The position numbers and the translations under genes were made by a program. Source: Giardia intestinalis (lineage: Eukaryota). Taken from it: a stretch of 64,000 nt of DNA. The DNA is taken from assembly GCA_000002435.2 (NCBI GenBank), contig CM018792.1; one strand, written 5' to 3'. The notes under the pieces are model-generated. The model saw only the letters and a program-made list of their open reading frames with translations, did no database searches and was not told the DNA's origin. Position 1 is the stretch's first letter, and every line of letters starts with the position of its first letter. This document shows positions 13,369 to 51,711 of the stretch, one piece after another.

Positions 13369-14733
13369 TTAGTAGCTCAGAAACTGTGCAAACCAATGGA
13401 TTAGTACGAGACTAGCCGCATCCTTCCCGTTTGCTCCAATGATCCCCAGGTGCTCTCCCTGGCGGTACTGTATCGCGACAATCTGGTTCCTGGCACTGGA
13501 TCGTGTGAATAGGTTTGCTTTCCCTTGATAACTGTCTGTCATGTGTGCAAGGATCGGCAGCAATGGCCCCGTGACTGTGTCATCGTAGGCACCCAAGAAA
13601 AGGATGGGCGTGGTTCGACTTAGAATCGCAACGGCCTCCAAGCAAACAGCAGAAGGGAAGATAAGATCGTAGTAGTCGTCAAGAGACTGGGATGGGACAA
13701 CTAACCGTGCAAATACCTCTCGATCAAAATCCTGCATGGTCCGAAGTGCCTGGTTCTGAAGGATCGAGTCAAAATCTATCTCTCTGCCTGTCCTTTGTGC
13801 ATACACCTCCAGGGCGTCCTTGTTTTTTGCAATATACTCACGCTGGTAGGACCCGATGGAGATATGTGTCTTCAGATTTTTAAGATAAGCCTGCCGTTTA
13901 TCTAGATTTGCAAACAAAATAGCCACGCTCGTTATAGCCTTGTAAATCTTAGTTACTAACTTTTTATCCTTTGAAGCCATCTGGACCAGATTAAGTCTTG
14001 TGAAATACTGTTCGTAGAGAGTAGAGGCATCATGATCCACTCCCTCCTGAGAGCCGCTCACCAGACCTGCTTTAAGAACCAGGTCGCCAATAAAGTGGCA
14101 AATCCTCATGCCCCCCAAGGAAAATCCCACCAGGTGAATTGGTAGATCTGAGTTTTGCGAGAGGTCATAGACCGCCTCGTAAATGTCCTGGATGTTTAGA
14201 TACTCGTCCAGGTACTGTTCCTGTGCGTCGCTGTCCAAAATGGTTCCACCGTATCCTCGAGAAATCAAGACGTAGCAGTTGTGTCCTTCTGCTGTTGCGG
14301 CCGAGACAAGCCTCTTGACACAGGGCGCACGTGCAGACGCAGCCATGGGTGTACATATCAATATATTGGATTGCGCATCAGGTACGAGAACCTGATCCAT
14401 TGAAACGCTTCCCAGACCATCGAAAAGCTGTGGCGGAAGGCTCCGACGCTGATACTTAACGTCAGGAACACCAAGAGTGTAGGATAGAACAGCGTAGTCC
14501 GCTGGGCCTCTGGCCGTTGGCGGAATTGTCAGGCGAATGCGCTGCACAGCCCTCACAAACGGCTGCTGCTTTCTGCTGGACCACTCTATGAATCGGATTG
14601 TATATCTGCGAGTAAAGTGTGTTGTATAGAAATAGAGAGAGCACAGGGCTAGGAACGGGAGAATATATCCAAAGATAACTGCAAACATTCCTTCATTTAA
14701 AGTAAAGAGTAGTTTATTATACTCCCCACACAT
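13369..14733 (-). CDS. Alpha/beta-hydrolase (lipase/esterase-type) membrane protein
   Basis: 454-aa ORF with the nucleophile elbow GFSLGG (GxSxG) and a hydrophobic N-terminal segment. The annotated start overlaps the stop of the upstream WD40 gene by 17 nt. An internal Met 15 codons downstream (MFAVIFGYILPFL) may be the true start. Confidence 0.6.
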   Translation of the reverse strand: MCGEYNKLLFTLNEGMFAVIFGYILPFLALCSLYFYTTHFTRRYTIRFIEWSSRKQQPFVRAVQRIRLTIPPTARGPADYAVLSYTLGVPDVKYQRRSLPPQLFDGLGSVSMDQVLVPDAQSNILICTPMAASARAPCVKRLVSAATAEGHNCYVLISRGYGGTILDSDAQEQYLDEYLNIQDIYEAVYDLSQNSDLPIHLVGFSLGGMRICHFIGDLVLKAGLVSGSQEGVDHDASTLYEQYFTRLNLVQMASKDKKLVTKIYKAITSVAILFANLDKRQAYLKNLKTHISIGSYQREYIAKNKDALEVYAQRTGREIDFDSILQNQALRTMQDFDREVFARLVVPSQSLDDYYDLIFPSAVCLEAVAILSRTTPILFLGAYDDTVTGPLLPILAHMTDSYQGKANLFTRSSARNQIVAIQYRQGEHLGIIGANGKDAASLVLIHWFAQFLSY

Positions 14734-16998: not shown

Positions 16999-18138
16999 TT
17001 GACTCGTTACCTATCCCAAGTTTTAAAAACCTTATCCGTGCAATCTTTAGTCTTTGGCCTCAACATGGCTGCCCCAAATGAGATAGATGTACTGAGACGC
17101 GAGGTAGCACGCTTGCTCCACGAGAAAATTAACGCTTACATGGAGCCAGTTCATTTGGACAAGTATACACTGGGGACTGATCTTGCAACCATTGAAGATA
17201 TGTATACGGCAATATCGTGCCTGCGTCGTCATGTACTCGAGGTAGATGCCCGCACCAATGAAAGGATAGAAGAGAATGCACAACAACTAGCTGCAGACTA
17301 TCGGTTATTCAATGAGCTGGCATCTCGGGCCAAGGATACCATTTCTGCCCTTACTGCCCAAAAGGAAGAAGTGGACGCACGCGAGGCTACACTGTGCACA
17401 TTAGAAAGCACTCTCCTGAGCCGGCTTCTATCTACTGAGGCGTACCTGACCGCTAGAGCAAAGGTGGCCGAAGCACTCGAAAGCGCCTATAAAGAGCAAT
17501 TTACCGGAGTAATAGAAATGTATGCAACTCTCTTGGGATCCTTTCGTGCTGCAGAGAAGAAGTTAGAGCGTCTCTCCTATGAAAATGCGCTGCTGCGTTG
17601 CGATAACCGGAATCTTATGAATGAGGTTGCCATGCTACACACGGATCGTGATGCAGCGCAAGAAAAGGCCGCGAACACAATGACTATGTATAGCGAGCTA
17701 GGAGGGCGGCTATCTACGCTGTTAAATCAGTGGTCGAATTATCGCACACAGGATGGCTTTAGTGTTCCAGACACGGCTGCGAAGTTACAAAGCATAAACA
17801 GCAATGTTGAAGAGCTGCGAAGAGAGGTCGCTATTGTAGTGTCAGATATGCAACGCACCATTACAGATCAGGAGGCAATTATTGCCGCTCTGACAAAAGA
17901 GCTGGACGAATTGCAGAACAAAGGGCTGGAAGCGAAGATAGAGACTACTAAGCTAAACTTCTTAGAGACAGAGAACAGCAGACTAATGAAAGAGCTAGCG
18001 TCTGCAAGGTGTTCCTCAATGGACTCTGGATCCTCCCATATGCATTTGAGCGTCGCCAATGCATCAACTCAGACCACAGAGCAATCAAGAGCACAGCACA
18101 CAGATGACAATTGTGGTGCTGTCGATGTTGTCTCATGA
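16999..18138 (+). CDS. Coiled-coil protein (379 aa), function unknown
   Basis: Heptad-rich, charged ORF. It is divergent from PF20 across a 128-bp spacer. Its stop abuts the stop of the convergent gene on the opposite strand (TCATGA). Confidence 0.55.
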   Translation: MTRYLSQVLKTLSVQSLVFGLNMAAPNEIDVLRREVARLLHEKINAYMEPVHLDKYTLGTDLATIEDMYTAISCLRRHVLEVDARTNERIEENAQQLAADYRLFNELASRAKDTISALTAQKEEVDAREATLCTLESTLLSRLLSTEAYLTARAKVAEALESAYKEQFTGVIEMYATLLGSFRAAEKKLERLSYENALLRCDNRNLMNEVAMLHTDRDAAQEKAANTMTMYSELGGRLSTLLNQWSNYRTQDGFSVPDTAAKLQSINSNVEELRREVAIVVSDMQRTITDQEAIIAALTKELDELQNKGLEAKIETTKLNFLETENSRLMKELASARCSSMDSGSSHMHLSVANASTQTTEQSRAQHTDDNCGAVDVVS

Positions 18139-18834
18139 GTATTTGACACCATCATGAATATAGGCAATGTATGGAGCCGGCCACGCTGTCGCGCAAACAA
18201 GACAAGATAAATTATCGTCATGAGAAAGTAGTTGACGCACGCAGTCAAAGTGTGCACACGCTCCGCAAGGGCAGACGACTCCAAAGCCGACGTTGGTATT
18301 ACAATATATGCAATTACACCTTAAGGGTTGTCTGTCCAATATATAGTCTTGCATTTCTAACAAGAATCTAAGAGTAGGAAAACAGTGTGGGTGTCTGAGT
18401 CTATCCAGTATTTCGTGGTTTGGTAACACAATATTATTCTCTCCAGTAAACGACGCATTCAGAAAATGCGATTGCGTCAATTCGAGAACTGCGTTCGTTA
18501 TCTCAGGAGTGATGATAAGCAGGGCGGATGGTAATGAGTCAAGAAGTTTATCGACCAATGCTTTGACATCGGCTTTTATGCACAGCCATGAAAGCTTTCG
18601 AATATCCGAAGACAGTAGTATATTATTGGAGCTACCATCCATATTGATAGGATATTTTCGTTGCTGAATAAGCACAACTAAGCGCTGCTCGGGACCAAGA
18701 TGGCTGGGGGGCTCACTGACCACTTTGGCTACATATCCCATTAATTGAAGTGCCTTATTTGCTTCTTCCACATCACTTTCGGTGTAGTTATCCATGTTAA
18801 GAGAGCCTAGCTCTAAAAGATAACGGGCTAACAT
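18133..18834 (-). CDS. Small Cys-rich (zinc-finger-like) protein, 233 aa
   Basis: C-terminal cluster CNCIYC...CPCGACAHFDC...CLVC (Cys/His ligand pattern). Its ATG is immediately 3' of the TAA of the 1228-aa gene (TAAATG on the minus strand), exactly at the outer palindrome junction. Confidence 0.5.
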   Translation of the reverse strand: MLARYLLELGSLNMDNYTESDVEEANKALQLMGYVAKVVSEPPSHLGPEQRLVVLIQQRKYPINMDGSSNNILLSSDIRKLSWLCIKADVKALVDKLLDSLPSALLIITPEITNAVLELTQSHFLNASFTGENNIVLPNHEILDRLRHPHCFPTLRFLLEMQDYILDRQPLRCNCIYCNTNVGFGVVCPCGACAHFDCVRQLLSHDDNLSCLVCATAWPAPYIAYIHDGVKYS

Positions 18835-21800
18835 TTATTCCCTCTCCATCTCCCCTCCCTCCTGGAGGCCCAGAAGAGCGGCGAGGACGTCGTCGAAGGC
18901 GAGGCGTGTGTGCGTCGGGTCGGGGAGCTGGGAGCGGACCTGCACGGGCCCCTCGGCAAGGCCTGCCTCTCCGCTGCCCAGCCCCGAGACGGTGATCGTG
19001 TGCCCGGCCAGCGCCAGGCCCTCGACGGAGCCCAGCGTACGGTACCGCCGCTCTCCGTGTGCAGGGAGTAGTCGGGCCCGGGACGGAGCCCACAGCCCCC
19101 GCTCTAGCGTCACAGGGGGCACATCAGTGTGATTTCCGTAGTTAATCTGATGGTAGGCCTCCCAGAGCACCTTAGGTCCGTAGAGGTGAGAAGCCCACAT
19201 CATCGGTGTCACCCTAGAAGGCCCGGGGGCTAGGGTGGGCTCTGCTCTGATGGCCTCGAGCGCCTCCGCTGACTGGATGGCCATGGCCCGTAAGGGATCG
19301 TTAGAAAAGCCCTCCAGCGCAAGGACGTCTTCTGCAAGCATTACCCTTCCGGATGCACGCCCTCGCCTCCGCCGCTTCCGTGTTGAAGCATGGGCATTTG
19401 CGACCAACGGCTCGTGCTCCAGTAGTCGGTCACGTAGCCGCTGCAGACCTGCCTGTACCCGTCGGAGGTGACGTGTGTGCTGGTAAGTGTTTTGCTGTGC
19501 AACAAAGTCAAAATCGCGGCTGCTCGTCAAGGATTGTACCCTATGGATGCACGACGGGATGTATTCTATTATCTCGGTTTGTCCTAAGTTAAGCTCATCT
19601 AGGCCGTCCCTTGGATTATTGCCCCGAGTGTGTCTGTGAGGAGCCGCCGTCCAGCCACGCTGAGTCCAGCCTTGCCCGGAATCCATCCCCGATGATGATA
19701 GCGCGCTGCTATGGTTATCTTCTGAATCAGAAGACAGCTCAGCGACAGATAGCTTTGGGTTGCGGCGCACCTGGTGCTTACTAGGGGGTATAGATATCAA
19801 GTCCATGGATTGGCTGAAGATGGTTGCGATCCGTTCCCTCAAGCGCGTTTGTAGAAAGCTACAGACAAAGGCCCGCACGGAGCAGTCTGGAAGAAGTGTG
19901 AGATAAATAAGGAGAGCGTGCTTCATTGAGAGCCTTCGAGGTAGATAGCCGTCCAAGCTTCTAATCTTGCCCTCTACATTACCATCCAGGGAAAGCTTAA
20001 GGAATTGAAGGTTATGTTCTGAATCGTTTTCTTTTGACAAGAGCGCCTCTTCTATGTGATCGGTTGATAGCAATGGTGTTACATTGGATCCCATGCTTTG
20101 TTTGGCCAATCCAATAAGGCGCAAGATAGAAGCTTCAGCTACGAGGTTGTCTCGTCTGTTGGGTGTTTCCTCGCCCAAAAACGATGCACACAAATCTCTA
20201 TAGCTTATAGATAGCGTCGCCCCTGCAGACGCTTGCTTTGTGTCCATCTTGCCAGCTTGCATATCGGTGGTAGATTGCGCTTTAATAGAGCTTCCTCCGG
20301 ACTTGCATAAGCATGCCTTGCATGTTGAATATGCACGGTCTACACAAAGATCTGTTTCATCCATAGCGACCATATTGCAGAAGTAACAAGGACACAGTGG
20401 CCTGATCGTCAACGACACAGTAGAAGGGGTTCCATGTACACAGCCCTCAGGCCAAGTACAGGACGCGACAAACGATACCGATCTCGCCTCCATGCCGTCA
20501 AGAAGGAGTCCGTTATGTTGTGCCTGAGAAGTGCGCAGGAGAATGTTATTGAAGCGCAAAATCATCTGACAAATAGCTTTGTAGTATGCGTGCGCAGATG
20601 GAATATCCAAGCAAACATGATCATGAGTTTGGAGAAGAGTCTCCTGAGTGCATGCTCGCATGTGTTCTAAAAGGGAATCATAAAAAAAGGTAGCTGTAGT
20701 GAAGTGCTGGTAGGTATAGAGTCGATCTAGCACGAGTGGCATAAGATAGCGAAGCTTTTCTTCCATGGAAGTAAGTGTGTAGAATGCATGGCTTCCACCC
20801 TTTAACTCTATAAGAGCCCTTATCGCATGAGGAAAGTTACTTTCGAAGCCAGTAAGTTTCATCCCTGGACCTGTAGTAAGAGGAGGGTGGCAAAACAAAT
20901 CAGAAAATTCGTTCATACACCTCTGGGCAACAGCTTCTAAGATTCTTGGTGTAGTTGGCGCTGAAAATACTTGTTTGTTTGGGATGTCCTTTTCAAGGCC
21001 ACCGACCTGGTCCTGCTCCGGCAACGATTCTAAATCCAAGAAACCAGGTTGAGCGTCTTTTAAATTATAGACTCCTTTTTCAGCGAGCTCATAGACTGAT
21101 GTGGGTTTAGCTGTGTCTACATGGAAAGACTCCACAAAGCTAGATTCTTTTCCTTGAGCATCCTTGGCTGTGAAGACATCCACAGCAGAAAGAATATCAT
21201 GCATGCTCTTTGAAGCACTGATCGCCTCATTGATTTGTCCTAAAAGCTCGTTTGCTGGTAGTTCTGGCAATGCTGTGACATTGCCTCCAAAGCTGTTGAA
21301 GACATCACAGACAATCCCCCTGATCCCGCAAGTTAGTGACTGGGCCAGGTATACGTCTTCTGGTGTAGCAAAGTGCTCCTGGGATAGAGACCCAAATACT
21401 TTGCACTCTATAAATTGTGAACAAAGTCGTAGAAAACTAGCAGACTTGGACCAGGGTCCCATGAAAAGCTTTTCGATAACATCGAGCCAGTGCTCGTATG
21501 CTGAGTGGACGTAAGTAAACATCGTCGAGGTAAGCAGTCGGTGGGAGGCATAGTTTCGAACGGTGTCGCAGGCTTCCATATCCTGAGTGTAATTCCTAGA
21601 CCTCTTAGAGCCGTATTGCTCTGCTCCTTCCTTTGCATGTTCTTCCCGTTGGACCCTTGACAAAGCGCCATACGCCTTGTGCTCAGAGATGTCATCAGCT
21701 ATGACATAAATATCGCTAGCATAACGAGCAAAGTATTCTGGTTCAGGGTAGATTGTGACCATCACTCTGCGAGTGCTAGGATCTGGCAAGACAAAGTCAA

Positions 21801-22521
21801 AATGGCAGAATCGCGTTTCTATTTGAGGACTCAAAAGCCTTACAAACTTTCCAGAGAGAAGAAATGCACTTGCCGATGTACTGTGCTCATAATAGTATGT
21901 CGTTCTATCTTGAGAAAGCTCCTCACTACTTAGAGACAAGGCATCCTCAATTGCGGAAAAAACTGAAGCGTTAAGCCACGTGTCGTCCATATGAGTTGCA
22001 AGACAAGAAACCGGCGCATGCACTCTTGACGATAAGGAGTGTGCAGCACTGTGCTCATGTATCCGCTCGAGCGCTTCCATTATCACATGACGCCGAATGA
22101 ATGCTGCATCGGAAATGTCCTCCTCTGACGATTCCGAGTCCTCATTAGCCGCTTTTTCTTCCAGAAGCTCCAGAAAAAGAGGCGGTGAACATGATAACTC
22201 GGCAGTCAAAAATCCAGAAAGGCAGCGCCTGTAAGCATGGCCGTCTAAGCACGGGTCTGACGAAAAAATATTCACTCCCTTAGGCAAACAACCCCTAGGA
22301 TCGTCAAAATTCAGCCGCACTCGATGACTAGAATCGAAGCCACTGCTGTACATGAACTGCTGTGCGTACTTAAGACCAAATAAAGGAACATAAATCAGAC
22401 TGCTGGGTTCTGTTTCATTGCTTGGTAAAGTAGAGTCACCTAGCGCCATCCCGTGATTTGTAGGGCTATGCATCGGTGCTGCAGGCACTAAGGTATCATG
22501 GAAACCACTTTGTGGGCCCAT
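18835..22521 (-). CDS. Large hypothetical protein, 1228 aa (palindrome copy A). The C-terminus differs from copy B.
   Basis: Long ORF, identical to 46210..49929 except for the last codons (…GEMERE* versus …GEMERCNSSNVVPTICE*). No recognisable domain. Confidence 0.65.
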   Translation of the reverse strand: MGPQSGFHDTLVPAAPMHSPTNHGMALGDSTLPSNETEPSSLIYVPLFGLKYAQQFMYSSGFDSSHRVRLNFDDPRGCLPKGVNIFSSDPCLDGHAYRRCLSGFLTAELSCSPPLFLELLEEKAANEDSESSEEDISDAAFIRRHVIMEALERIHEHSAAHSLSSRVHAPVSCLATHMDDTWLNASVFSAIEDALSLSSEELSQDRTTYYYEHSTSASAFLLSGKFVRLLSPQIETRFCHFDFVLPDPSTRRVMVTIYPEPEYFARYASDIYVIADDISEHKAYGALSRVQREEHAKEGAEQYGSKRSRNYTQDMEACDTVRNYASHRLLTSTMFTYVHSAYEHWLDVIEKLFMGPWSKSASFLRLCSQFIECKVFGSLSQEHFATPEDVYLAQSLTCGIRGIVCDVFNSFGGNVTALPELPANELLGQINEAISASKSMHDILSAVDVFTAKDAQGKESSFVESFHVDTAKPTSVYELAEKGVYNLKDAQPGFLDLESLPEQDQVGGLEKDIPNKQVFSAPTTPRILEAVAQRCMNEFSDLFCHPPLTTGPGMKLTGFESNFPHAIRALIELKGGSHAFYTLTSMEEKLRYLMPLVLDRLYTYQHFTTATFFYDSLLEHMRACTQETLLQTHDHVCLDIPSAHAYYKAICQMILRFNNILLRTSQAQHNGLLLDGMEARSVSFVASCTWPEGCVHGTPSTVSLTIRPLCPCYFCNMVAMDETDLCVDRAYSTCKACLCKSGGSSIKAQSTTDMQAGKMDTKQASAGATLSISYRDLCASFLGEETPNRRDNLVAEASILRLIGLAKQSMGSNVTPLLSTDHIEEALLSKENDSEHNLQFLKLSLDGNVEGKIRSLDGYLPRRLSMKHALLIYLTLLPDCSVRAFVCSFLQTRLRERIATIFSQSMDLISIPPSKHQVRRNPKLSVAELSSDSEDNHSSALSSSGMDSGQGWTQRGWTAAPHRHTRGNNPRDGLDELNLGQTEIIEYIPSCIHRVQSLTSSRDFDFVAQQNTYQHTRHLRRVQAGLQRLRDRLLEHEPLVANAHASTRKRRRRGRASGRVMLAEDVLALEGFSNDPLRAMAIQSAEALEAIRAEPTLAPGPSRVTPMMWASHLYGPKVLWEAYHQINYGNHTDVPPVTLERGLWAPSRARLLPAHGERRYRTLGSVEGLALAGHTITVSGLGSGEAGLAEGPVQVRSQLPDPTHTRLAFDDVLAALLGLQEGGEMERE

Positions 22522-22808
22522 GTGTTTCTTACCTGAGACTCAGCTTTTTGATTCTGCGCTCAGTTGTCTCCTCCCTATTTGAATGGAGCCATGACTCTCT
22601 AGAATACCAAATTAAGAACAGCATTGGCTTTAGCTCTGTCTAGGACTGGTTGAATTCTAACAGTCATGGTCTTTCTAACATTTAGAGCTCTATAGCCTTG
22701 AACAAATTCTCGCATGTCTATACAACGGCCTGAAGATGAAGGACCATATACTATCTTGTTCGAGTTAAGTAATTCCAATCACTAATCCTGATGATCTCTA
22801 TTTGTTAG

Positions 22809-25349
22809 ATGTTGAATATACGTAGGTATCAGCGGCTGTTTACTGTAGAGAACAAAAGCAGATACAAAAAGCTATCGAGCCACATGTTATTGTTGTTGCT
22901 ACTTGTTATATCTATCTTGACAACTTCTGAAAGAGGAGAGCTCTGCCTTTTAGAATTACGGGAGGGGTATCAGTTGGACTCCACGACACTTGATCCAAAT
23001 TTTGTACGAGATCTTGGGGTTTTGGACTTGAAGGTTTTTGATTGTTATCACGAAATAGCTGACGAGCTCCAGGCTCATCCCGAACTTGAAAAGAGTTTAA
23101 AAGAGCAATACTTACAACATCTTCGAAGCCAAGCTGCTGTCAATAAAGTTTATTGTGACGACTTTTTCGATACAACAACTCTCCTTTATCATATTAATGA
23201 CCAAACAGAGGACGCAGAACCACTAGATCATCTTCACCTTATAAACATCTTTCGATCTGATAACCTTACGTTAATTCATCCTGATGTCACCGGCCGACGA
23301 ATTAAGCTTTCGTTTCTGAACTCAGGGATTTCTAGGACATGCACCCAACTAACTCTCAACGAAGAATATTCCATAAACTGTGGCGGCTTTAATGCATCTC
23401 TCTTTACTGAGGATGCACCCGGGACAATTGCGTTAACCCTTGCTGCAGCCCACATGTCTGGAGGCACCAGTGGGGTAGCGAGAAACGCTCAGGTCATTGA
23501 GAGAACGGTGTTCAGACCTAAACTGGTTGATTCGGAGACATCTTCTGGGATGGTTGCTAGCTCAGAGTACGAAGCATCGTTTATTGATGTCTTGGAAGGA
23601 TATAGCATAAAGGGCGCATCATCCCGCTTCATGAACCTATTAGTTTGTATGTATGAGATTCCATTCGCTGCTCATCTAAGGGCTAAGAACTCTCTCTTGG
23701 AGTCTTTGGTTCCTCTTCTCAGAGATGTAATGGCAGCATCAGATGTTAAAGACTCTTGCAACGGCGATTTCATCCCTATTTTTAGTACAGGTGTAGGCGA
23801 AGAAGACGTCAATCTGTTAAATTATTTGCAATCCTCCGTAGCTGTGTATGTACAAAGCGTCATCCAGCAATCTCATGGAGAGGCTAACACAGTACTCACT
23901 GTCACCTATCCTAGCTCCAGAATCGGAGCGAATATCCTATTCAGCACCCCGTCTGGAACAGAAGACGCGCCATTGGTCGCCTTTGGATTTGATGACGTTG
24001 TTGCCCCCGTCGCATATGGGCCTGGGTCCGCCCTATCTATTGGAGCAGCTGCACTTGCACTAGTGGCCGATGCGTTTGCAGCTCTAGGGTATCAGATGAG
24101 CTTTTCTGATTTGCTTAACGTGATCGCCGAGACAGGGAGACACACAGAGCTAGGGCTTAACTCATCATACCTCGGCGACGCAAACGACTGGAAAAGAAAC
24201 GCTGCTGGATACCTCTTCTCGAATACATACGGGTTTGGACTGGTGGATGTGAATGCCTCCCTCTCTTATGTTAAGGCGCTTCGTCACATATATGGTTCAG
24301 AAAAAGACTACATGAGCCGTCAGGCTTGGGAAGAGCGATGTGGTAACTCTTGTAAGAAATTCCTGGGCTGCACAGGGGTGATTATTGATGATGGTGGGGA
24401 GTGTGCGGAAAAGTGTGGAGTCCATCGAATAGCAATCGATCGTTACATCCCTGATCGGATCACCCTCCAGAAGAAGCTATCTGTCGTGCAAAATAAGCGC
24501 ATAGAGAAAATAGGACTCCGAGTTGTTGCTTCAAACGGGTCGAATCTAAAGGAGCTGAGTATACTGGTGCAATCGCCAGAGGGAACCAGAGGCACGATGA
24601 TCCAGCCAGATTCTGTGACGACAGAAGATATTGAGGGTGTGTTTTTCTACTCCTACCTGTTCTACGGAGAGAACTCCGTTGGAGACTGGACTATTAACAT
24701 CCTTGACGTAGGATACCATCAGTCCATCTTCATCGAGTACATTGACATAGTGATCTTTGGGATCGAGTCTCACCTTACTATTGCATGGCCTAGTAGCATT
24801 GCCTTTAGAACGAATCCAGAAGAAAACGCAGAGACCGTTATGGAGAGGATGATGCGTACGCTTGGCTACAAGCGGCGCACAGCTTCTTCTTCAAACACTC
24901 TGTACTACACTTGCACAGTGCATCCTGTCACAAAAAGGTATACCCTGTTTTATCTGAGTGGAACGCAGACTGCTTGGAGAAGCGCACCTCAAACTCCTGT
25001 TACGATTGCCACAGATATACAGTTCAGTTGTACAGGCCCGAAGGTTAACGGAAAAGAGTTTGGTTTGACGCTAACAGGGCTAGTCGAACAGGAAGCATTC
25101 AGCGGCCAAGGGAGGCTTCTCTTTGTCCCGTCTGGGATTACGGAGCTCGACCGTACCACACTTCGCGAAGATGTGTTTGTCTCAAACAGCATCAGGGTCA
25201 CATATTCACCAGAAGAGGACGGGGGTTTGCCTGATGAAGAAGGCGACGTGTCCTCTGAGGCTCGATACAGACCCCGCTTGCTAGCTGCTACTGTGACAGG
25301 CCTATGTGTGCTAGCTGCCGCCTTTCTTGGGGGAGCATTCAAGGAGTAG
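22809..25349 (+). CDS. Kexin/furin-like (subtilase S8B) proprotein-convertase homologue with P-domain. Type I membrane protein. Catalytic triad integrity uncertain.
   Basis: 846 aa. Signal peptide MLLLLLLVISILTTS. C-terminal TM LLAATVTGLCVLAAAFLGG. ...GDANDWKRNAAGYLFSNTYGFGLVDVNASL matches the furin ...NANDWATNGVGRKVSHSYGYGLLDAGAM. The P-domain-like LSILVQSPEGTRGTMIQP...GDWTINILD matches LAIHLVSPMGTRSTLL...GEWVLEI. The canonical D/H/S motifs were not confidently located. Confidence 0.65.
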   Translation: MLNIRRYQRLFTVENKSRYKKLSSHMLLLLLLVISILTTSERGELCLLELREGYQLDSTTLDPNFVRDLGVLDLKVFDCYHEIADELQAHPELEKSLKEQYLQHLRSQAAVNKVYCDDFFDTTTLLYHINDQTEDAEPLDHLHLINIFRSDNLTLIHPDVTGRRIKLSFLNSGISRTCTQLTLNEEYSINCGGFNASLFTEDAPGTIALTLAAAHMSGGTSGVARNAQVIERTVFRPKLVDSETSSGMVASSEYEASFIDVLEGYSIKGASSRFMNLLVCMYEIPFAAHLRAKNSLLESLVPLLRDVMAASDVKDSCNGDFIPIFSTGVGEEDVNLLNYLQSSVAVYVQSVIQQSHGEANTVLTVTYPSSRIGANILFSTPSGTEDAPLVAFGFDDVVAPVAYGPGSALSIGAAALALVADAFAALGYQMSFSDLLNVIAETGRHTELGLNSSYLGDANDWKRNAAGYLFSNTYGFGLVDVNASLSYVKALRHIYGSEKDYMSRQAWEERCGNSCKKFLGCTGVIIDDGGECAEKCGVHRIAIDRYIPDRITLQKKLSVVQNKRIEKIGLRVVASNGSNLKELSILVQSPEGTRGTMIQPDSVTTEDIEGVFFYSYLFYGENSVGDWTINILDVGYHQSIFIEYIDIVIFGIESHLTIAWPSSIAFRTNPEENAETVMERMMRTLGYKRRTASSSNTLYYTCTVHPVTKRYTLFYLSGTQTAWRSAPQTPVTIATDIQFSCTGPKVNGKEFGLTLTGLVEQEAFSGQGRLLFVPSGITELDRTTLREDVFVSNSIRVTYSPEEDGGLPDEEGDVSSEARYRPRLLAATVTGLCVLAAAFLGGAFKE

Positions 25350-28300
25350 AGAAACCCATATCTTATACTGAGAAAGGCCGAAGAGAGGGTCTCAGATGCA
25401 GGTGAAAGGACCCTTCCTTCAAAGATACTCTAGTAACACTGGCGTAGACAGAAGCCAAGAAGGCTGAATCTAATTTGGATAGTTATGTCATTGTAACACC
25501 ACCCAATAGCTTGCTGAGAATTAGGACTTTGCCAGTGGGGTGTGTGGTTGTGCTTGAATTTGAGCCACCCGGAGTTGATGGTTAGACTACAAAGTAGTCG
25601 AGTTGAAGCTGTTACAACTCCAGCGTATGGGAAGAATGCAAGTGGGCGAGTTGATCACTCGTTAGCTGTTCTATCCTTGGCCAAACCACTTGGCCGTTCG
25701 CGTTCATCCTGTATATAAGATAGTGAATGCGTATGTAACCCTCAAGAAATGCTTTATGGGAGAAGCAGTGTAAGCGCATCGAGGAACAGAAGCACGGAGA
25801 CTTCTCTTAGCTACATCAAGCAAATGCTAAAGAGGGCTGCTAGTCGGAGAGTGCTTTTGGATCTGCAGTAGGATGACGAGCAGGCATCTCTCTTGTGGAG
25901 CCGTGTGATGCCCGTTATTTGGCATGCAAAGAAGATACCATCAGGCTTAGCCAGAAACAGCCGAACAGCCTTTCATATGGTCTACCGGAGTCATTCAATA
26001 CACAAAGACGAGGCACTGTCTCATTACCACAGCGGTCTTGACAGACCCAGGCGTGCAAATGCCAACAATGCAAGCGGGACAAGTACCATATCGATAGAGA
26101 CTTGGATCTCAAAAGCAAACAGAGAGCACCGACCGCTACAGCGTGTGCTTATGCTGTCATGTATCTAACACCAGTAAGTATAATTAGTAACAGGTCACTT
26201 GTAGGGAGTCATTGAATGCGGCGTAGCAGTGAGCGAAGGATCTAGCGTCTGCTGCTTGTGATGCTCAAATGGTGTAAGTGGTGTTCCTAGTCAGTAGACC
26301 TCCTCCAGAAATGGCAGATACCGGAGAATGTGTGACTAGTCGTGGAGGCCACGAACCGTGTACAGAGGCATCAAAGTTAGAAGACAGGCGTCTATGAGCG
26401 ACTCTTGTGAGTGTATCAATAAAGGAAAGGGCCAGGACACTGCTGGGTCTACCTGATGCGTCTAAGGCAGGAGAGATGGAAGAGCTGATAAGCACGTGGC
26501 TCACTACAATAAGTACGGCAGACATAGTGCAGTTCAAGAGGATGCAAACTACTGCTGCATATGCTAGGCTGTGGAGTTACGCCTATGAGCACCCTGTGAA
26601 CCGAGAGCTTGCATCTCTTCCTACAGCGTAGCGGGTGGAAGAGGCACGAGCTTGAGCAAGGCCAGAATGCTAGGGCCACAGAACGAGCGGCAGCTGGGAG
26701 AGAAGCTTGTGGAGGGTGATGCATAGCTCTCTGCTAGCTAGGAAGCGGCGTGGCCCACTGACGGGACGACTGGACGTAACCACGTTAAGCTTGATAGGCA
26801 CGTTGAGCGCAGCGTTTTATGGCCTCTGAATACCGCACTGGTGTATGTGCTAGACAAGGTTTACCGGTATACCTTGAAGACAGGACTACTTGGTTGGCTG
26901 AAGCTGGGAAAGCGACCAATCCATTCCCATCAGAGGTGAATGCTTCCCCATGGATACACCTGAGACCGCACCCTCCTGTGGCCGGACAGGAGAGCAGACA
27001 ATCGTGGAAACGTGTGCGAACAACCCATGGGTGCTGTCCAGCCATCTCTCTAGAACACGGTTATTTGCTAGCAGGCGGTACAGCGGGGAAGGAGACCGCC
27101 GTGCGTTGCTCCTGCCCGGCTAGATACGTCCCTTGCTCGCGGCACGGGCCCTGAAGGGGGCGTTGTCATGTGGCCTCTCGCTGAGCTAAAAAACTAGGTA
27201 TGTCTGTGATCGTGGCTATCTCCCCAGAGTAGCACCTCCGTGCACAGGCCCTATTGTGTTCGTCGCTTAGCCCGCTAGACAAGGGGCTCAAAGGCCTTTT
27301 GAAGCGTCTTCTAGCCTCTGACATATCGCAAGTACTATAAGCACGAACAGCACACGGAACGACGGTGGCACACATGGACAGTGTACTATGTGCGTAGAAG
27401 AGAGCAGCCGTCCTCACATGTGCACGATGACACTAGCCAGTACGCCTTAGCTATTTTGCCGGCGACCATTTCCCCTTGTGCTTGCCACGATGGGAGAGCA
27501 AATGCACCTGGCGGGTTGGCAGCTGCTGTGCTGGCCTTCTTGAGCACTAGGCACATCCCTGCATGATGTTCAGTGCGAGCCAAATCCCACGATTGGGACT
27601 ATCGTTATTAGCAAGGCGAGGTAGCTCGTTACAGCGGGCGCGCCTTTGATCACGTCCGCGATCTCTGTGCATACAGATGCTCCCCTACGCCTGCTGGCGA
27701 TAATCGTGCACTCAGACAAGTACCACAAGGCGCTCCACTGTCCTCAAGGGAGACCAACGGCTTATGCATACGGCGCAACGGAGGCCTATGCGGTGAGTGC
27801 TACAGGGCCAGCTACTGACCAGTCTGGATCACAGTCCGCTCCTCAAGTACCCTTATACGTGCTTGCGTGCTCGTTGCCAGTGTTGAGCGAGACTGCAAAG
27901 GGTTTTGCTTCGTTGTGCTTATCTTACAGTGCTCAGTCCTTGGAGTACGCTTCACCGAAGGGGGATGTTAACTAGATGTGCAGAAGGTTGGCCGTGCACA
28001 GAGGTTTCTAGAAAGCCGGTTCACACAGAGGAGGCAGGGGCGATAAGCAGGCCAGCTATGTAAGACTAGCGTTAGAGGGGCTAGCTGCCAACCAAGATTG
28101 TAGCGGGATATCTGTAGTGCCTGATGGCTTCTAAGCATGGCAAAGCCGTGAGGCCTACGGACAAGCTGGAGGCTGCTCTTTGTTTTTATGCATTTGTAGC
28201 AGAACAGGTTCTTGAAAGTCTGCTCATTCCGGAGCTGAAAGAGTCCATCTCCTCTCCCCACATGGCACGGGGCTCCATTGTAGATGTGTACTATACAAAC

Positions 28301-31023
28301 CGATAGCAGCCAGCGTATCTGCTGTCCAAACGAACCTGGCTGCGCCTTCCTGTGGCAGGCGGGCCACTATCGAACCTCTCAATCTGCACGACTGCCCTGT
28401 ATCACCGTGTTGAACAGTCTTTTCATCTTTGGTCAGAGGATTGCTACACGTGTTACAAGCTTGGCTCGTCCATCAACCAGGTGGTGGCTCAGCGCTCGCT
28501 CTTGCTTGTCTCCCAATCCAGACGCCAACGCTTGCCGTTGTACTCAGATCAGTATCACCTATACATCTGCTTCCACCATCCTTCAGAGCACATGCTCTAC
28601 AGCCGAAGGCCGATGCCCCCTATTACGAAGAGGAGTGTCCCCCGACTTACTCCACCTTAAGTAGGCCTACTAGGCACACTCTTGTCTGCTTCCTTACCTT
28701 CCTGCCTGCAGGCCGCCACGTGGTTCTCCTTCGTCGCTCCGCTTCACACATGTGTCGCGTCATCGAGCGTTCGTGACCTCAAGTGACCACCCGGAATCAG
28801 ACCCTTCGCACTATACTACAGGCAGCTCAGCATAGGCATGACCCATAAGCAACGCTGGTCCTCTTGGCGCGCCCACCAGCTGAACGCTGTTACTCTGGCC
28901 CAACCAGCCAGCAAGAGGCCTTAGCTCGTGCTCCAAGCTATCCACGAAGCATGGCTACTCTAGGGGGTTCCCGAGCACAGTCAACAGCCACAACGTATCT
29001 CAATCGGTCACAGGGTAGCCACTTTCATCGGAAATCCATGTGGGGGACACATCTTTGGCAGCAGCTGATCACCTTTATCTTCGAGTCTCTACTAGGCCAT
29101 AGCTAGCACCAACCGGAGTGGCAGGGTCAGCACGGCCTGGCCCAGCAGTGCCATCTGTCCTCACCGGCCCATAGAGTGTGCTCGACTCCACAACCTTATG
29201 ACTAGTTCTATAGCACGCTCTGGGTCCGATCGGTCAGGTGGCAGGACTATCAACTCTCGGGTGGCTGTGCTAAAACCTACTCTGGAGCGAGGCCACTGCA
29301 GCAGGGGCTAGATCCATCACACCAGAAGCGATCACCGGCTTCTCATCTACCGGATGGAAGCTGCAATAATGGCTGGGTAAGGAAACCAGCCTGGCAAGGT
29401 ATGACCGGCGGAGCGGATCCAAGCTCATCAGCAATCTACAATGCACACCACTCAGGCTCTATGGGTAGGCATAGCATTCGCTTGGTTCATGGTGATGGGC
29501 ATCGGTGGGTGTCCTTACGACACAAGGACAGTGACTAATGGACCACAACGGCTGTTCATTCATGTGACCCTCTAGCCACTAACATAGGCAGGCCTTCTAC
29601 AAGGCCCTTGCCTGGATCGTATCCGAGATATGTCCTTGCGGTATCTCTTGCTGTCCAGGTGCGTGTGACTGGACCTTCTACTTTTCACACTGGCTCGTGG
29701 ACGTCGGCGCTTTGGCCTCTGGTGGAGCTATAATAGAGATCTGGCATAGGGTGTGGTGCCGTTAGCTGAGCCTTATCATGCTCCCATGCACGACGGGAGA
29801 GAGCCGGTCCTCCTTGCACTGTGCAGGGAGAGAGGGGCATCGAACTACACTACACTCTATACCGTGTGGCGCGGTTTGCAGTGCAAGGGACAGAATGCCT
29901 GTACTGAGTGCCCATTTGTCCAGGCCAGCTACAGATCGGGCTGGAGGTGACAAGCGAGCGCTGCTCGATTCCTTATTAGCAGGTGGGAGCCTGACCGCCC
30001 TAATACTTGCATGAGGCCAAAGGAGCGCCGGATCATGAGCCTGGCCAACACCTGGCGGACCAGCATAGACACCTCGAGCTCCTATTCCTTCTCATTGACG
30101 ACAGCTTGATACGGAGAGTCTTTGTCGTCCCGCACACACAGATGCTCCCATTAGCGATAGCATCGGGGTGATTTGGGAGTAGTAGTGGAGTTCTCATTCA
30201 GCTGGCCCAGAAGACACACAGTTTGAGCAGCGTTTCCTCCTTGTTCAAGTTGAGAGAACCGACCTACGCCTTCGAACTCCATCTGGTACCTTTCATGCAC
30301 TACGGGATCTTGATAATATTCACTGCAAAGGGTTAGAACTGGAGCCTGTGTGCCCACCAGGTGGAAGCATTATACACGCTAGTCAATACCGATTCGCGCA
30401 TTCACGGACCTTGTGATCTTCCCAGGCCCCGCAAAGATCCACCTACGAGTGTCCTTCACCAGGTAGTCGGGCAACAGGCGTGACCAAGGGATAGGGATGC
30501 TGTATGGGCATCGGTGCATGGGCCAGACCCGCACAGAGAGGGCACAGGGGCTGGCTCTTCAGGGGTGCAGAGGTACTGGGAGAGGAACTAGTGGCAGACC
30601 TGCCACAAGAGGCCGGGTTCCCTCGATTCTGCAGGAGGCAGGTACACAGGGTTGCGTCGCTGTCTGTTTCTGGACTTTTTATCTATGCCTACACAGTGGA
30701 ATGATAAGTTTTTAGTCAAACTACGTTAGAAAGTCCCTATAGGTGTAAGCTATATACGCTACATTAAAGTACACATGATAGATACATTTATTACTTAAAT
30801 GAGTGCATGTGCTTTCCTTTTGCAGACGAATTTCCAGTAATTCTATGACATGTTAACAGAAGAGACAATCATCATTCAATCTAAAGTTAACTTCACATTA
30901 TGTTTCATTCCTCATATATTGCCAATTACATGTGCTGATTTCTATGAGCTGGATGTCTTTTGAAGATATGCAGCACTGACTCACAGCTCTACATAGATCG
31001 TTACTTGGCTACTCTTAGTCTCA
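25350..31023. other. 5.7-kb ORF-poor interval between the kexin-like gene and the VSP (left arm). Mirrored at 37708..43381.
   Basis: The longest ORF in 5.7 kb is 126 aa, whereas elsewhere in the window genes are separated by ≤300 bp. GC is moderately elevated, except for an AT-rich ~300 bp immediately upstream of the VSP ATG. Confidence 0.6.
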
Positions 31024-31028
31024 ATGTT
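31022..31028 (+). promoter_or_regulatory. VSP initiator element PyAATGTT spanning the start codon
   Basis: cAATGtt at the VSP ATG, preceded by ~300 bp of AT-rich sequence. The mirror copy is at 37703..37709 (−). Confidence 0.6.
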
Positions 31029-33102
31029 TGATAAACTCATTTTTGCGAGCTTGGCTTTACAATTAACTTGGGCAACACAAGTAAAGCGGATGGTGAGGTC
31101 TGCCACATGTGATTCAACTACCAGTGGATCAACCAAATGTGCAGCAGAAAAGTGCAATGTATGGATTGGAGGAAAGGATTATTGCTCGCAATGCTCTACT
31201 GATGCTGAGCTTCTTATTGATGGAGGATGTGCCCCAACTACTTCAGACCTAGCCAAAAAGTGTATAAGTGATAACAAAGGTAAATGCAGTTCCTGCGGAG
31301 ATGGCTACTTTCTTCACAAAGGTGGGTGCTACAAATTTGGTACTGCACCAGGAAATGCCGTGTGTACTGAACCATCTGCACCCGGAGATTCTCTTCCCGC
31401 AGGGGTGTGCACAACTTGTGGATCAGGGTACTTTAAGAATCCAGCAGAAAGCGCGGCAAGCACACCGCCATGTATTGCTTGCAATGACACAGCTGGCAAT
31501 AGCGGAAACACTGGACTCGTTGGATGCGGTACTTGTGACCCTCCTGTTTCTGGACAAGCAACATGCACATCATGTCTAGATGGATTTTTTGGAATAGGTG
31601 AGGGCACTGTTACTTGCACTGAATGCACAGGAGAATGCAAAACATGTAAGGGTGGTGCAGACCAATGTACATCTTGTAAAACATCATCAAAATACTTGAA
31701 AATTACAGACTCCGTCGCTGAAACCGGCGAATGTATTGATCAAGGACAATGTACAGAGACTCATTTCGCTATGGTAGATGGTGGTATAAATATGTGCTAT
31801 CTCTGTAATACTACTGATAAAGGTGGGAAAGTTGGATGCAGAACATGCACAAAAAGTGGTACAGTAACATGCAAGACGTGTCTTGATGGATTCTTTGGTA
31901 CTACTGATTGTGTAGCGTGCCATGAAGACTGCTTGACATGCAAAATCGAAGCAGCAAAATGTACTTCTTGTAAGGCAGATACTAAGCCATACTTTAAGGA
32001 AGGAGCTGATAATGATCAAACAGGCACATGTGTTGATGAAGTCGAATGCAAAGGAGATCACTTTTCTACAATTGACACTAGTAACAGTGATAAGAAAATA
32101 TGCGTTCCTTGCAGTAAGACTGACAAGGGTGGTATCACTAATTGTAAGACGTGTGCTTTTAAGGTATCTTCTACTGAAGAAAGACCGGCGATCACCTGCA
32201 CCGAGTGCACCACAAACAACCTGAGCCCCTTGAAGGACGAGTGCATGGCGGCCTGTCCCGCCGGCACATATGCTAATAATAAAGTGTGCGCCTCCTGCCA
32301 CTCGTCGTGCGCCGGTTGCCAGACCGACGACAGGGAGACCTCCTGCACGGCCTGCTATCCCGGATATTCCCTTCTGTATGAGCCCAACGGAGCAACTGGG
32401 AGGTGCGTTAAGGAGTGCACTGGTGCGTTCATTACCAACTGTGCGGACGGGCAGTGCACGGCTGACGTGGGGGGTGCGAAGTACTGTGCCCAGTGCAAGG
32501 ACGGGTACGCCCCGATCGACGGAATTTGTACAACGATGGCAGCTGCCGGAAGAGATGCGAGCGTATGCACGGCGGCAGGCGGGAAGTGTACGGCGTGTAC
32601 AGGAGATTACGCCCTCGTCTCGGGTGGATGCTACGGTATTCAGAAACTTCCTGGGAAGGCTATCTGCATAGCAGCTAACAATGGAGAGTGCACTACTTGC
32701 GCGAACGGACAACAGCCCAGTGGAAAGGTCTGTCCGACATGTCCAGCTGGCTGCTCAAAATGTACAGGAAGTGCTCCTTCACAGCAGTGTTCGGAGTGCT
32801 TCCCAGGATACTACAAGTCCGGGGATAAGTGCGTAAAGTGTGACAAGGATAGTGAAAATATTAAGGGTGTGCCAAACTGTGTGAGCTGCAAGGAGCCAGC
32901 CAATTCTTCCGGGGCTGTTACTTGCTATTTGACACAACAAAAGACTGACGATGGCACCGGCGGAGACACTGGAGGAGACAGTATGAACAAGAGCGGCCTC
33001 AGCACTGGCGCCATCGCGGGGATCTCCGTCGCAGTCATCGTCGTCGTCGGAGGGCTCGTCGGCTTCCTCTGCTGGTGGTTTATCTGCCGTGGAAAGGCGT
33101 AG
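31024..33102 (+). CDS. vsp: Variant-specific surface protein (VSP), Cys-rich, 692 aa
   Basis: Signal peptide MFDKLIFASLALQLTWA. Dozens of CXXC motifs and GGCY motifs. C-terminal TM followed by the invariant Giardia VSP tail CRGKA. PyAATGTT initiator at the ATG. AGTAAAC poly(A) signal 8 nt after the stop. Confidence 0.9.
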   Translation: MFDKLIFASLALQLTWATQVKRMVRSATCDSTTSGSTKCAAEKCNVWIGGKDYCSQCSTDAELLIDGGCAPTTSDLAKKCISDNKGKCSSCGDGYFLHKGGCYKFGTAPGNAVCTEPSAPGDSLPAGVCTTCGSGYFKNPAESAASTPPCIACNDTAGNSGNTGLVGCGTCDPPVSGQATCTSCLDGFFGIGEGTVTCTECTGECKTCKGGADQCTSCKTSSKYLKITDSVAETGECIDQGQCTETHFAMVDGGINMCYLCNTTDKGGKVGCRTCTKSGTVTCKTCLDGFFGTTDCVACHEDCLTCKIEAAKCTSCKADTKPYFKEGADNDQTGTCVDEVECKGDHFSTIDTSNSDKKICVPCSKTDKGGITNCKTCAFKVSSTEERPAITCTECTTNNLSPLKDECMAACPAGTYANNKVCASCHSSCAGCQTDDRETSCTACYPGYSLLYEPNGATGRCVKECTGAFITNCADGQCTADVGGAKYCAQCKDGYAPIDGICTTMAAAGRDASVCTAAGGKCTACTGDYALVSGGCYGIQKLPGKAICIAANNGECTTCANGQQPSGKVCPTCPAGCSKCTGSAPSQQCSECFPGYYKSGDKCVKCDKDSENIKGVPNCVSCKEPANSSGAVTCYLTQQKTDDGTGGDTGGDSMNKSGLSTGAIAGISVAVIVVVGGLVGFLCWWFICRGKA

Positions 33103-33110
33103 ACTTAGGT

Positions 33111-33117
33111 AGTAAAC
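33111..33117 (+). promoter_or_regulatory. Giardia polyadenylation signal AGTRAAY (AGTAAAC) 8 nt after the VSP stop codon
   Basis: tag acttaggt AGTAAAC. The mirror copy is at 35614..35620 (−). Confidence 0.65.
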
Positions 33118-33530
33118 ACGTCACTGTATATGGCTTATTACACTATGCTGCTGGGGCTATCTGAGGATCGCCCAGAGATCGTGTGGGTGGGCTCGCTCCT
33201 TCCTGGCCAGTTCAGAGACGAGGGTTGGCTGTGGATGATATAACGAGAGAGTCCTCTCCAGTGATATATTCAGAGTCTGGGCATTCCTCTACCGCTCTAT
33301 GGGGGTGTGCTCAGTCTGGGTGTGCGCGTCGGTCTGCCTAGGGGTCAACTTATTTGCCCATCTGTGTCGTCCACCAGTGGCGCCTCTCCTTGGTCTTCCT
33401 TCGTGGTGGGTGAAGCTCTGGTCGCTGTATTTTTTAGATGCTCCTGTCTGTCAGGGGCTGCCATCGGGCTCTCCGCTGGCTGGGCCCCGCGGTGTCCGTC
33501 CGGCTGTGTCCCGGACAGTGGTCCTACAGC

Positions 33531-33562
33531 CGCGGTCACGCAGGTCTCAGTGGGTCAGCTGG
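33531..33562. repeat. Inner 32-nt inverted repeat (left copy), separated from the main arm by a 32-nt diverged patch
   Basis: cgcggtcacgcaggtctcagtgggtcagctgg at 33531..33562 recurs reverse-complemented at 35168..35199. The intervening 33499..33530 and 35200..35232 are diverged, sharing only 'gctgtg'. Confidence 0.7.
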
Positions 33563-35167: not shown

Positions 35168-35199
35168 CCAGCTGACCCACTGAGACCTGCGTGACCGCG
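35168..35199. repeat. Inner 32-nt inverted repeat (right copy)
   Basis: Reverse complement of 33531..33562. Confidence 0.7.
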
Positions 35200-35613: not shown

Positions 35614-35620
35614 GTTTACT
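35614..35620 (-). promoter_or_regulatory. Poly(A) signal AGTAAAC of the minus-strand VSP copy
   Basis: Mirror of 33111..33117. Confidence 0.65.
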
Positions 35621-35628
35621 ACCTAAGT

Positions 35629-51710: not shown

Positions 51711-51711
51711 T

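Follow-up and report, generated by a model that had tools for sequence, protein, structure and literature searches.

Chromosome 4 of Giardia intestinalis WB carries a palindrome whose arms are 14.66 kb long, and at its outer boundary a single gene, present in both arms, ends in two different ways; the locus raises the question of which ending is the original one, and whether the boundary itself is the scar of a duplication, recent or otherwise. The initial annotation of the window (the whole 64,000-nt stretch of DNA analysed) held that the duplication breakpoint was pinned here to within 1–2 nt and, implicitly, that the duplication was recent. We consider it likely that the palindrome is ancient, that its arms are kept alike by conversion, that the edge is the limit of that conversion and that the longer, right-hand ending is a by-product. 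The features referred to below are collected in Table 1.

Table 1. Positions within the window of the palindrome, its genes and its flanking elements
Feature	Position	Strand	Size	Remarks
233-aa gene GL50803_009952	18133–18834	-	233 aa	single copy, outside the palindrome; C-terminal RING-like Cys/His cluster
GAATAAATG	18832–18840	-		covers the final Glu codon, the TAA stop and the start codon (ATG) of the following gene; AATAAA lies within it
Left copy GL50803_0015084	18835–22521	-	1228 aa	ancestral ending …GEMERE, stop
Palindrome left arm	18842–33498		14,657 nt	mirror-identical to 35233–49889 except at 19174 and 30402
846-aa gene, left copy	22809–25349	+	846 aa	right copy at 43382–45922, minus strand
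VSP gene, left member of tail-to-tail pair 16501/d16501	31024–33102	+	692 aa	Pfam VSP, E=1e-85
Decayed inner zone, left arm	33499–33566			partner 35164–35232; in local alignment symmetry persists with mismatches and one indel
Asymmetric spacer	33567–35163			GC about 0.60; A far commoner than T; no long ORF
Palindrome right arm	35233–49889			mirror partner of 18842–33498
VSP gene, right member of pair 16501/d16501	35629–37707	-		mirror-identical arm
Right copy GL50803_0032097	46210–49929	+	1239 aa	ending …GEMERCNSSNVVPTICE, stop
Junction-derived tail	49890–49929	+		final base of an Arg codon, then 11 new codons and TGA
caATAAAattc motif	49961–49971	+		near-invariant in the right flanks of all lineages
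567-aa coiled-coil gene	50007–51710	+	567 aa	right-flank neighbour; syntenic in DH, B, E and the dog-type lineages

Considering first the geometry of the palindrome, a base-by-base mirror comparison (paired arm positions summing to 68731) places the ends of arm identity exactly where they had been put before, at 18842 on the left and 49889 on the right, and finds mismatches at 2 of the 14,657 nt (19174/49557 and 30402/38329; 99.986% identity). The arms returned by a repeat search as ‘100%’ identical, 18842–33513 and 35218–49889, are slightly rounded, being perfect only to 33498 and 35233. The outer edge is knife-sharp, without a decayed zone; the inner edge, unlike it, is gradual, since symmetry persists there through mismatches and an indel. 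Rfam and tandem-repeat searches across the whole window gave no matches.

Exact protein matches identify the two copies of the long gene and the left-hand neighbour as GL50803_0015084, GL50803_0032097 and GL50803_009952. The left and right proteins are identical over residues 1–1227, the only coding mismatch (19174) being synonymous, and the endings read as first described: on the left GEMERE, with the TAA (18835–18837) directly abutting the ATG (18832–18834) of the 233-aa ORF (TAAATG), and on the right a protein of 1239 aa, the tail peptide of which is CNSSNVVPTICE. Two C-terminal variants do exist, and the repeat boundary creates one of them. Neither junction reflects sequencing error: the left-type 20-mer is found in four other assemblies (L005, L006, L015, which is DH, and L016) and the right-type 20-mer in two (L002, again DH, and L003). 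The description of the 233-aa protein as ‘Cys-rich’ applies to its C-terminal ~45 residues, and not to the remainder. Pfam searches with the two proteins gave no significant matches, the best being PEHE for the long protein (E=0.016) and RING-like domains for the 233-aa protein (E=0.25–2.7).

As to which ending is the older, the 9-mer GAATAAATG is unchanged at 6 of 6 left junctions, from A1, A2, B, E and two dog-type lineages (the labels of the latter, for assemblages C/D, following run-accession series only); because of this invariance we take the left ending to be ancestral and the 1239-aa right ending to be the by-product. The same invariance overturns the idea that the TAA-ATG abutment was itself made by the duplication. 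The stop codon is fused to the ATG of the 233-aa gene in B (L001; GS tags 1141/1142), E (P15), DH and the dog-type lineages, and zero-spacing gene junctions are ordinary here, with 4 of 19 junctions having 1 nt or less. In B the 233-aa gene has no second ATG (…SLNIGNY), and therefore the abutting ATG is the start there. Orthologues of the long gene end in EKE and a stop in both P15 (1228 aa) and GS (1227 aa). Comparison with orthologues, proposed at the outset as the arbiter between the two endings, worked in part: the Giardia assemblages give the left ending as ancestral, and the G. muris orthologue GMRT_12945, which ends 3 residues past the last conserved block and so marks the C-terminal tip as variable, fails to separate E-stop from CNSS….

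A conserved GAATAAATG means that, in a compact genome, a single 9-mer closes one gene, supplying its last codon and stop, and opens the next, and it may double as a poly(A) signal of the AAUAAA type. The canonical Giardia signal, AGTRAA, is absent from the ~1 kb downstream of the left stop and the 770 nt downstream of the right stop, leaving as candidates only the AATAAA in this 9-mer, the AATAAA at 49962–49967 and a TGTGAA, occurring once, across the right stop. Supplementary Table 2 of PMC9014877 gives 7+4 polyadenylated ONT reads for GL50803_32097; among the rows listed in Tables S1 and S2 of that paper this gene alone appears, with none for 15084 or 9952.

The right-hand tail is drawn from sequence otherwise upstream of the 567-aa gene, and always ends 31 nt from the caATAAAattc motif. 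The DH orthologue of the right copy, DHA2_154477, is also 1239 aa long, and the tail is orthologous in A2, E and dog-type 1 (A–E p<2e-4; A–dog-type 1 p=2e-4); it is out of frame or stopped after 1–2 codons in the dog-type lineages, and assemblage B is without it, both copies ending in PEKE and a stop. It appears to be a neutral by-product on a non-conserved C-terminal tip. A separate idea, that the A/E tail is the decayed 5′ end of the 233-aa gene (ATGT..TAGC..CGTT..ATCT), found no support against shuffled sequences, either in local alignment (p=0.49–0.97 in five lineages) or in global alignment (p=0.23, 0.08, 0.74 and 0.29); such homology would have implied an original duplication that extended beyond the present edge, as it does in B.

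Both junction types are present in every lineage tested, namely A1, A2, B, E and the two dog-type lineages. DH contigs 10 and 30 are identical at 419 of 420 positions up to the same junction nucleotide as in WB. Logan contigs (k=31) share a starting 30-mer and then branch, as in L009 and L011, which come from one accession; the same pattern recurs in L007/L014 (B) and in L008 against P15 (E). In GS_B one copy, of 1227 aa, lies next to a 563-aa gene and the other, a fragment of 593 aa, next to the 233-aa gene. Both end in PEKE and they are identical at 572 of 579 residues (98.8%); the 7 differences could represent allelic heterozygosity or weaker conversion. The whole palindrome is seen in WB only, in a long-read assembly, and its presence elsewhere is judged from the junctions. 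There the duplication is directly visible over about 1.7 kb in B, over 420 nt in DH and, in E and the dog-type lineages, over 30 nt. The palindrome is probably older than the separation of assemblages A, B and E and the two dog-type lineages from one another; the presence of both junctions in every lineage, with arms that probably evolve in concert, removes the assumption of a recent duplication.

The position of the edge varies. Relative to WB it lies 34 nt further out in B, where the repeat takes in the TAA and 27 nt of the 233-aa gene, 3 nt further in in E, 7 nt further in in dog-type 1 and, relative to the conserved ATG, about 5 nt in in dog-type 2. The claim of a breakpoint fixed to 1–2 nt does not survive this: since the edge moves among lineages, it shows where homogenisation now stops, which need not be where the original break occurred. 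The arms of WB differ from each other by 0.014%, as against 1.43% between the arms of WB and DH (A2; 98.57% identity over 12,042 nt for the right arm of WB), a divergence pattern from which we infer that arm-to-arm gene conversion probably homogenises them. Over the last 30 nt, lineage-specific states are common to both copies within each lineage. Between A and B, the long-gene orthologues share 71% protein identity.

The boundary lies within a conserved hypothetical gene, 7 nt short of where its stop codon ends. In the mechanism that we propose, GL50803_0015084 would have stayed joined to its original neighbour, keeping the ancestral ERE ending with its TAA fused to the ATG of GL50803_009952; GL50803_0032097 would have lost its last codon and stop, reading through 12 codons upstream of the 567-aa gene to a chance TGA. 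The sharp edge would lie where homology stops, and therefore conversion too, and would have moved by between a few and 34 nt among lineages. Gene ends at segmental duplications generally behave in this way, an edge inside an ORF removing the stop so that the copy reads on to a chance one; we see no substantial difference here, the result being an ordinary outcome.

At its centre the palindrome surrounds the published tail-to-tail VSP pair GL50803_16501/d16501, listed by Xu et al. 2020 (Table 2; PMC7000408) on chromosome 4 with 692 aa and members 2526 bp apart; the gap between the VSP ORFs of the window is 2526 nt, equal to that entry, for a class with a published range of 2–4 kb of non-coding sequence. 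In common with other identical inverted VSP pairs of Giardia, there are two inverted identical ORFs with flanks that are identical up to an abrupt point of divergence, and the inner divergence, 396 nt past the stop, falls within the published 318–559 nt. On the 5′ side the published range is not matched: divergence was measured at 139–729 bp for other pairs, with no such point given for tail-to-tail pairs, whereas here identity runs 12.2 kb upstream (12,182 nt), covers two non-VSP genes and ends in the last codons of a third. The outer junction is, moreover, common to several assemblages, in contrast to the view of Adam et al. 2010 (PMC2996952) that identical inverted VSP pairs are probably recent. 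A search of the accessible literature found no paper on the outer junction or on concerted evolution of the 16501/d16501 palindrome.

Two known systems offer parallels. The large palindromes of human and primate sex chromosomes are reportedly maintained by arm-to-arm gene conversion, and resemble the Giardia palindrome in having a unique spacer flanked by arms of over 99.9% identity, in being orthologous in diverged lineages and in showing between-lineage divergence far in excess of that between arms. The Giardia palindrome differs in being about 100-fold smaller, in belonging to a protist that is tetraploid and has sex rarely if at all, in having at its centre an antigen gene that is not the same in WB and DH, and in that conversion is suggested here by divergence only. 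The boundaries of plastid inverted repeats, which are said to expand and contract, likewise shift by a few to tens of nucleotides, make alternative gene ends and hold a truncated fragment of a neighbouring gene at one boundary (in B, the 27 nt of the 233-aa gene); the Giardia locus, however, is nuclear and without an organellar replication and recombination system, and the analogy is one of mechanism only.

Other readings of the locus have to be weighed. That the ancient palindrome is also selectively retained, its arms persisting by conversion in all G. duodenalis assemblages while the central VSP cassette is exchanged and supplying either double-stranded RNA of the RNAi type or a means of repair, we regard as unlikely. 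Were it so, convergent read-through across the arms could give hairpin dsRNA for an RNAi-type control of VSPs or, alternatively, the arms could allow repair by conversion in a genome that is largely asexual; in the shifting boundaries one would then be seeing the trace of conversion that is still going on.

It is improbable that the junction types outside WB are alternative structural alleles, that is, an inversion polymorphism among four genome copies in place of two copies per chromosome. Short-read graphs cannot tell duplication from a heterozygous rearrangement, and assemblages B, C and D are highly heterozygous (PMC6939161); the right junction of B, however, keeps no more than 27 nt from the start of the 233-aa gene, so that an allele of this form would destroy a conserved gene, and this junction recurs in several independent B samples, whilst WB, with its very low heterozygosity, has a true palindrome with an orthologous junction.

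Nor do we find it probable that the 12-residue tail (C-N-x-x-x-V/I-x-P-x-I-C-E/K) represents a new C-terminus favoured by selection, making the copies functionally distinct isoforms. A1, A2 and E share the length of the ORF extension, the position of the stop codon and two conserved cysteines in a C…C spacing, and the polyadenylated reads given for GL50803_32097 in the rows of PMC9014877 noted above are compatible with such a product; but the dog-type lineages stop after 1–2 codons, with a CNN-like string out of frame, B is tail-less, both A1–A2 differences and 7 of the 8 A–E nucleotide differences in the tail codons change the amino acid, and the tip of the protein is not conserved in G. muris.

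Arm identity of 99.986%, an outer edge without decay and the published opinion of Adam 2010 (PMC2996952) would all suit a recent inverted segmental duplication in the WB lineage, with 18842/49889 as its original breakpoint and near-identity as a sign of youth, yet we hold this to be very improbable: DH shares the junction nucleotide though WB and DH arms differ by 1.43%, the right tails of E and dog-type 1 are orthologous, the annotated B genome has both contexts, and the edge varies in position among lineages. Contamination with WB-like DNA is excluded as an escape by the 20–30% divergence of the non-WB junction contigs. A recent fold-back or breakage-fusion-bridge event would be restricted to one lineage, with a junction formed through microhomology; the junction seen here is common to assemblages.

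Perfect palindromes are a known class of long-read artefact. It is nevertheless extremely unlikely that this one arose in assembly, for example as a PacBio missing-adapter chimera: although the palindrome as such is absent from the 2007 assembly, that Sanger assembly already had the right junction, in a contig of 869 bp with GL50803_32097 as a 179-aa fragment, the two kinds of junction are met again in DH, in GS_B and in several short-read assemblies made independently, and the rows listed in PMC9014877 give polyadenylated ONT reads for GL50803_32097.

Returning to our preferred reading, of an ancient palindrome with arms kept alike by conversion, GL50803_0015084 and GL50803_0032097 would be annotated as one and the same gene, carried once in each arm of the palindrome, the 1239-aa form being a by-product of the boundary and not to be taken as a distinct paralogue. 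At least one ‘identical inverted VSP pair’ would then be not recent but older than the assemblage radiation and continuously homogenised. For an organism whose sexuality is debated, the palindrome would provide a concrete locus at which to study the rates of mitotic gene conversion and the limits of its tracts.

Direct reading of 18826–18850 and of its mirror (~49880–49930) bears out the sequence described in the initial annotation, and a base-by-base mirror comparison, in which paired positions sum to 68731, has arm identity beginning exactly at 18842/49889. A repeat search reported one inverted pair, given as ‘100%’; by mirror comparison the arms are perfect only as far as 33498/35233, with two mismatches, one of which (19174) is synonymous in the long gene—the left and right proteins being identical over 1227 residues. 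Exact protein matches assign the window to chromosome 4 of G. intestinalis WB C6 (a 2.76-Mb contig). The 2007 assembly had represented GL50803_32097 by no more than an 869-bp contig encoding a 179-aa fragment. Two 692-aa VSP genes (Pfam VSP, E=1e-85) occupy the palindrome centre, tail to tail and 2526 nt apart. Upstream of the VSP, arm identity continues for 12.2 kb, a span that takes in a 5.7-kb stretch lacking ORFs and an 846-aa gene and stops within the final codons of the 1228-aa gene. The outer edge is knife-sharp, but the inner one fades out gradually through a symmetric zone of mismatches and one 1-nt indel, so the two seem to differ in history or constraint.

Features of the palindrome and its flanks in WB
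Feature	Coordinates	Strand	Remarks
Left copy of long gene	18835–22521	minus	1228 aa, ends GEMERE-stop; GL50803_0015084 (exact protein match)
Right copy of long gene	46210–49929		1239 aa, ends GEMERCNSSNVVPTICE-stop; GL50803_0032097 (exact protein match)
233-aa ORF	18133–18834		ATG directly after left gene's TAA; GL50803_009952 (exact protein match)
Inverted pair, repeat search	18842–33513 / 35218–49889
Arm mismatches	19174; 30402
Inner edge	33499–33566 / 35164–35232		68-nt zone
Spacer	33567–35163		GC ~0.60; strong A over T excess on + strand (AT skew +0.235 for 34001–36000); no long ORF, Rfam match or tandem repeat found
Stretches upstream of each VSP copy	25350–31023; 37708–43381		5,674 nt; GC 54–55%; ~98.6% conserved with DH; no ORF ≥150 aa (from ATG)
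Right-flank AATAAA	49962–49967		within caATAAAattc
Motif (C/T)AATAAAATTC	49961–49971		~40 nt upstream of 567-aa gene's ATG
Same-strand overlap	14717–14733		17 nt
Convergent overlap	18133–18138		6 nt
Convergent gap	51710–51712		1 nt
Cys/His cluster of 233-aa protein	18133–18270		residues ~173–214

The initial annotation held that one of the two C-termini was a product of the duplication breakpoint, and proposed a comparison of orthologues to find the ancestral one. We traced orthologues in several lineages, retrieved their contigs and compared the left junctions: all those examined join the stop directly to the 233-aa gene's ATG, and GAATAAATG is invariant there (6/6 lineages). Assemblage B lacks that gene's second in-frame ATG, which leaves the abutting ATG as the start. 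The right tails, compared in six lineages, show no conservation as protein; the G. muris orthologue (GMRT_12945) has its stop three residues past the last conserved block, so the protein tip is variable anyway. Judged from these sequences, the left ending and the TAA-ATG abutment are ancestral, and the boundary gave rise to the 1239-aa ending; the claim of two C-terminal variants therefore stands, that of the duplication as source of the abutment does not.

Outer junction by lineage (the two dog types, 67–68% identical, are probably assemblages C and D of PMC6939161, a label taken solely from the run-accession series)
Lineage	Left junction	Edge of arm identity	Right-copy ending past junction
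A1		7 nt before stop codon's end	CNSSNVVPTICE-stop
A2	stop-ATG fusion (DH contig AHGT01000010)	as A1	CNSSNIVPIICE-stop
E	1228-aa gene, then ...GAA TAA ATG CTA (P15)	3 nt further in than A, or same position with one near-edge mismatch	CNNLSVIPSICK-stop (E-like)
Dog-type 1	stop-ATG fusion (runs ERR3333378-83)	7 nt further in than A	V-stop
Dog-type 2	stop-ATG fusion (runs ERR3333378-83)	8 nt before end of own TGA stop; ~5 nt further in than A relative to conserved ATG	VQ-stop
B	...GAG AAG GAA TAA ATG TTG GCC... (L001); GS tags GL50581_1141 and 1142 adjacent	34 nt further out: beyond TAA, 27 nt into 233-aa gene	unchanged, same as left copy

Zero spacing is itself not unusual for the Giardia genome: the 19 gene junctions in the window include spacings of −17, −6, 0 and +1 nt, and 9.5% of G. 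muris genes overlap (PMC7641422). The 233-aa protein carries a Cys/His cluster (CNCIYC...CPCGACAHFDC...CLVC) with sub-threshold RING-like Pfam matches (E 0.25–2.7), and is possibly a zinc-finger protein of a divergent RING type. No AGURAA signal (PMC9014877) is found in the ~1 kb that follows the left stop or in the 770 nt that follow the right one. The left junction's GAATAAATG contains AAUAAA, a signal of ~5% of Giardia genes, and overlap of stop and poly(A) signal is documented in diplomonads (PMC9014877); this AAUAAA and the right-flank AATAAA may bear on 3′-end formation, and PMC9014877 lists 7+4 polyadenylated ONT reads for GL50803_32097. In all five lineages exactly 31 nt separate the caATAAAattc motif from the end of the variable tail. 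Among the right flanks of all lineages (orthologous contigs L007, L008, L009, L013) the (C/T)AATAAAATTC motif is nearly invariant and its surroundings diverge; it may act as a promoter/initiator element, as a poly(A) signal or in both roles.

The edge falls at different nucleotides in different lineages, and in B the ~40-nt tail of the others is replaced. Because A+E and C+D form clades (PMC6939161), the tail state is by parsimony ancestral and B a boundary expansion. The edge thus marks the present limit of homogenisation, not necessarily the original breakpoint, which had been taken as pinned to within 1–2 nt. The tail as a decayed continuation of the repeat was statistically unsupported when tested.

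Each lineage tested has both junction types. In DH, contig 10 begins within the arm, 420 nt from its edge, and continues into the 233-aa gene, and contig 30 passes from the arm to the 567-aa gene; they agree at 419/420 positions and part at the nucleotide where the WB copies do. Logan assemblies are k=31 de Bruijn contigs, all 31-mers of one accession being distinct (PMC12424806); contigs with the 233-aa gene and with the 567-aa orthologue share their initial 30-mer and then branch, within the single accession ERR3333383 (L011 and L009) and likewise for L014/L007 (B), P15/L008 (E) and L005/L016 (A). In the annotated GS_B genome, the 1227-aa copy GSB_151365 adjoins the 563-aa gene and a 593-aa contig-end fragment, GSB_152874, the 233-aa gene; both end ...PEKE and are identical at 572/579 residues. 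Since the right tails are orthologous (A–E p<2e-4, A–dog1 p=2e-4, dog1–dog2 p=0.009) and the right flank is syntenic in all lineages, a single origin is the parsimonious reading of a duplication that, on this comparison, is ancient.

The arms remain alike: within WB 2/14,657 nt differ, against 1.43% over 12 kb between WB and DH arms and a protein identity of only 71% between A and B orthologues, and the arm's final 30 nt have lineage-specific states common to both copies in each lineage. From this pattern, the signature of arm-to-arm gene conversion, we infer conversion itself. The GS_B protein copies (P0031 vs P0032) differ at 7/579 residues vs 0/1227 in WB; possible causes are that alleles in assemblage B are highly heterozygous or that conversion there is less efficient.

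Xu et al. 2020 (PMC7000408) list the central VSP pair in their Table 2 as 16501/d16501, and also noted multi-gene duplications up to 20 kb; the 5,674-nt stretches fit a published remark that the neighbourhood of VSPs is poor in genes. The centre is non-orthologous between WB and DH (35000–38061 vs 1–1853 of DH contig L002): homology (98.6%) ends 354 nt before the WB VSP begins, upstream of its start codon, and the VSP in DH is another one, of 417 aa, alignable solely over the conserved VSP 3′ end (78%, 447 nt). This suggests exchange of the VSP cassette within a stable palindrome.

Existing annotation covers the locus, and its VSP core has been published; where a repeat boundary falls inside an ORF, a C-terminal variant is the normal outcome, and the junction itself is unsurprising. 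Our literature search returned no description of an outer junction common to all G. duodenalis assemblages tested, of arms evolving in concert, or of a boundary shift between lineages. The locus is a Giardia inverted VSP pair within a palindrome apparently kept uniform by gene conversion, its edge shifted between lineages like plastid inverted-repeat boundaries. Adam et al. 2010 (PMC2996952) described 14 identical inverted VSP pairs, regarded them as possibly recent and were unable to place 5′ divergence points in the tail-to-tail ones; that a pair supposed ‘recent’ proves ancient is notable to the specialist.
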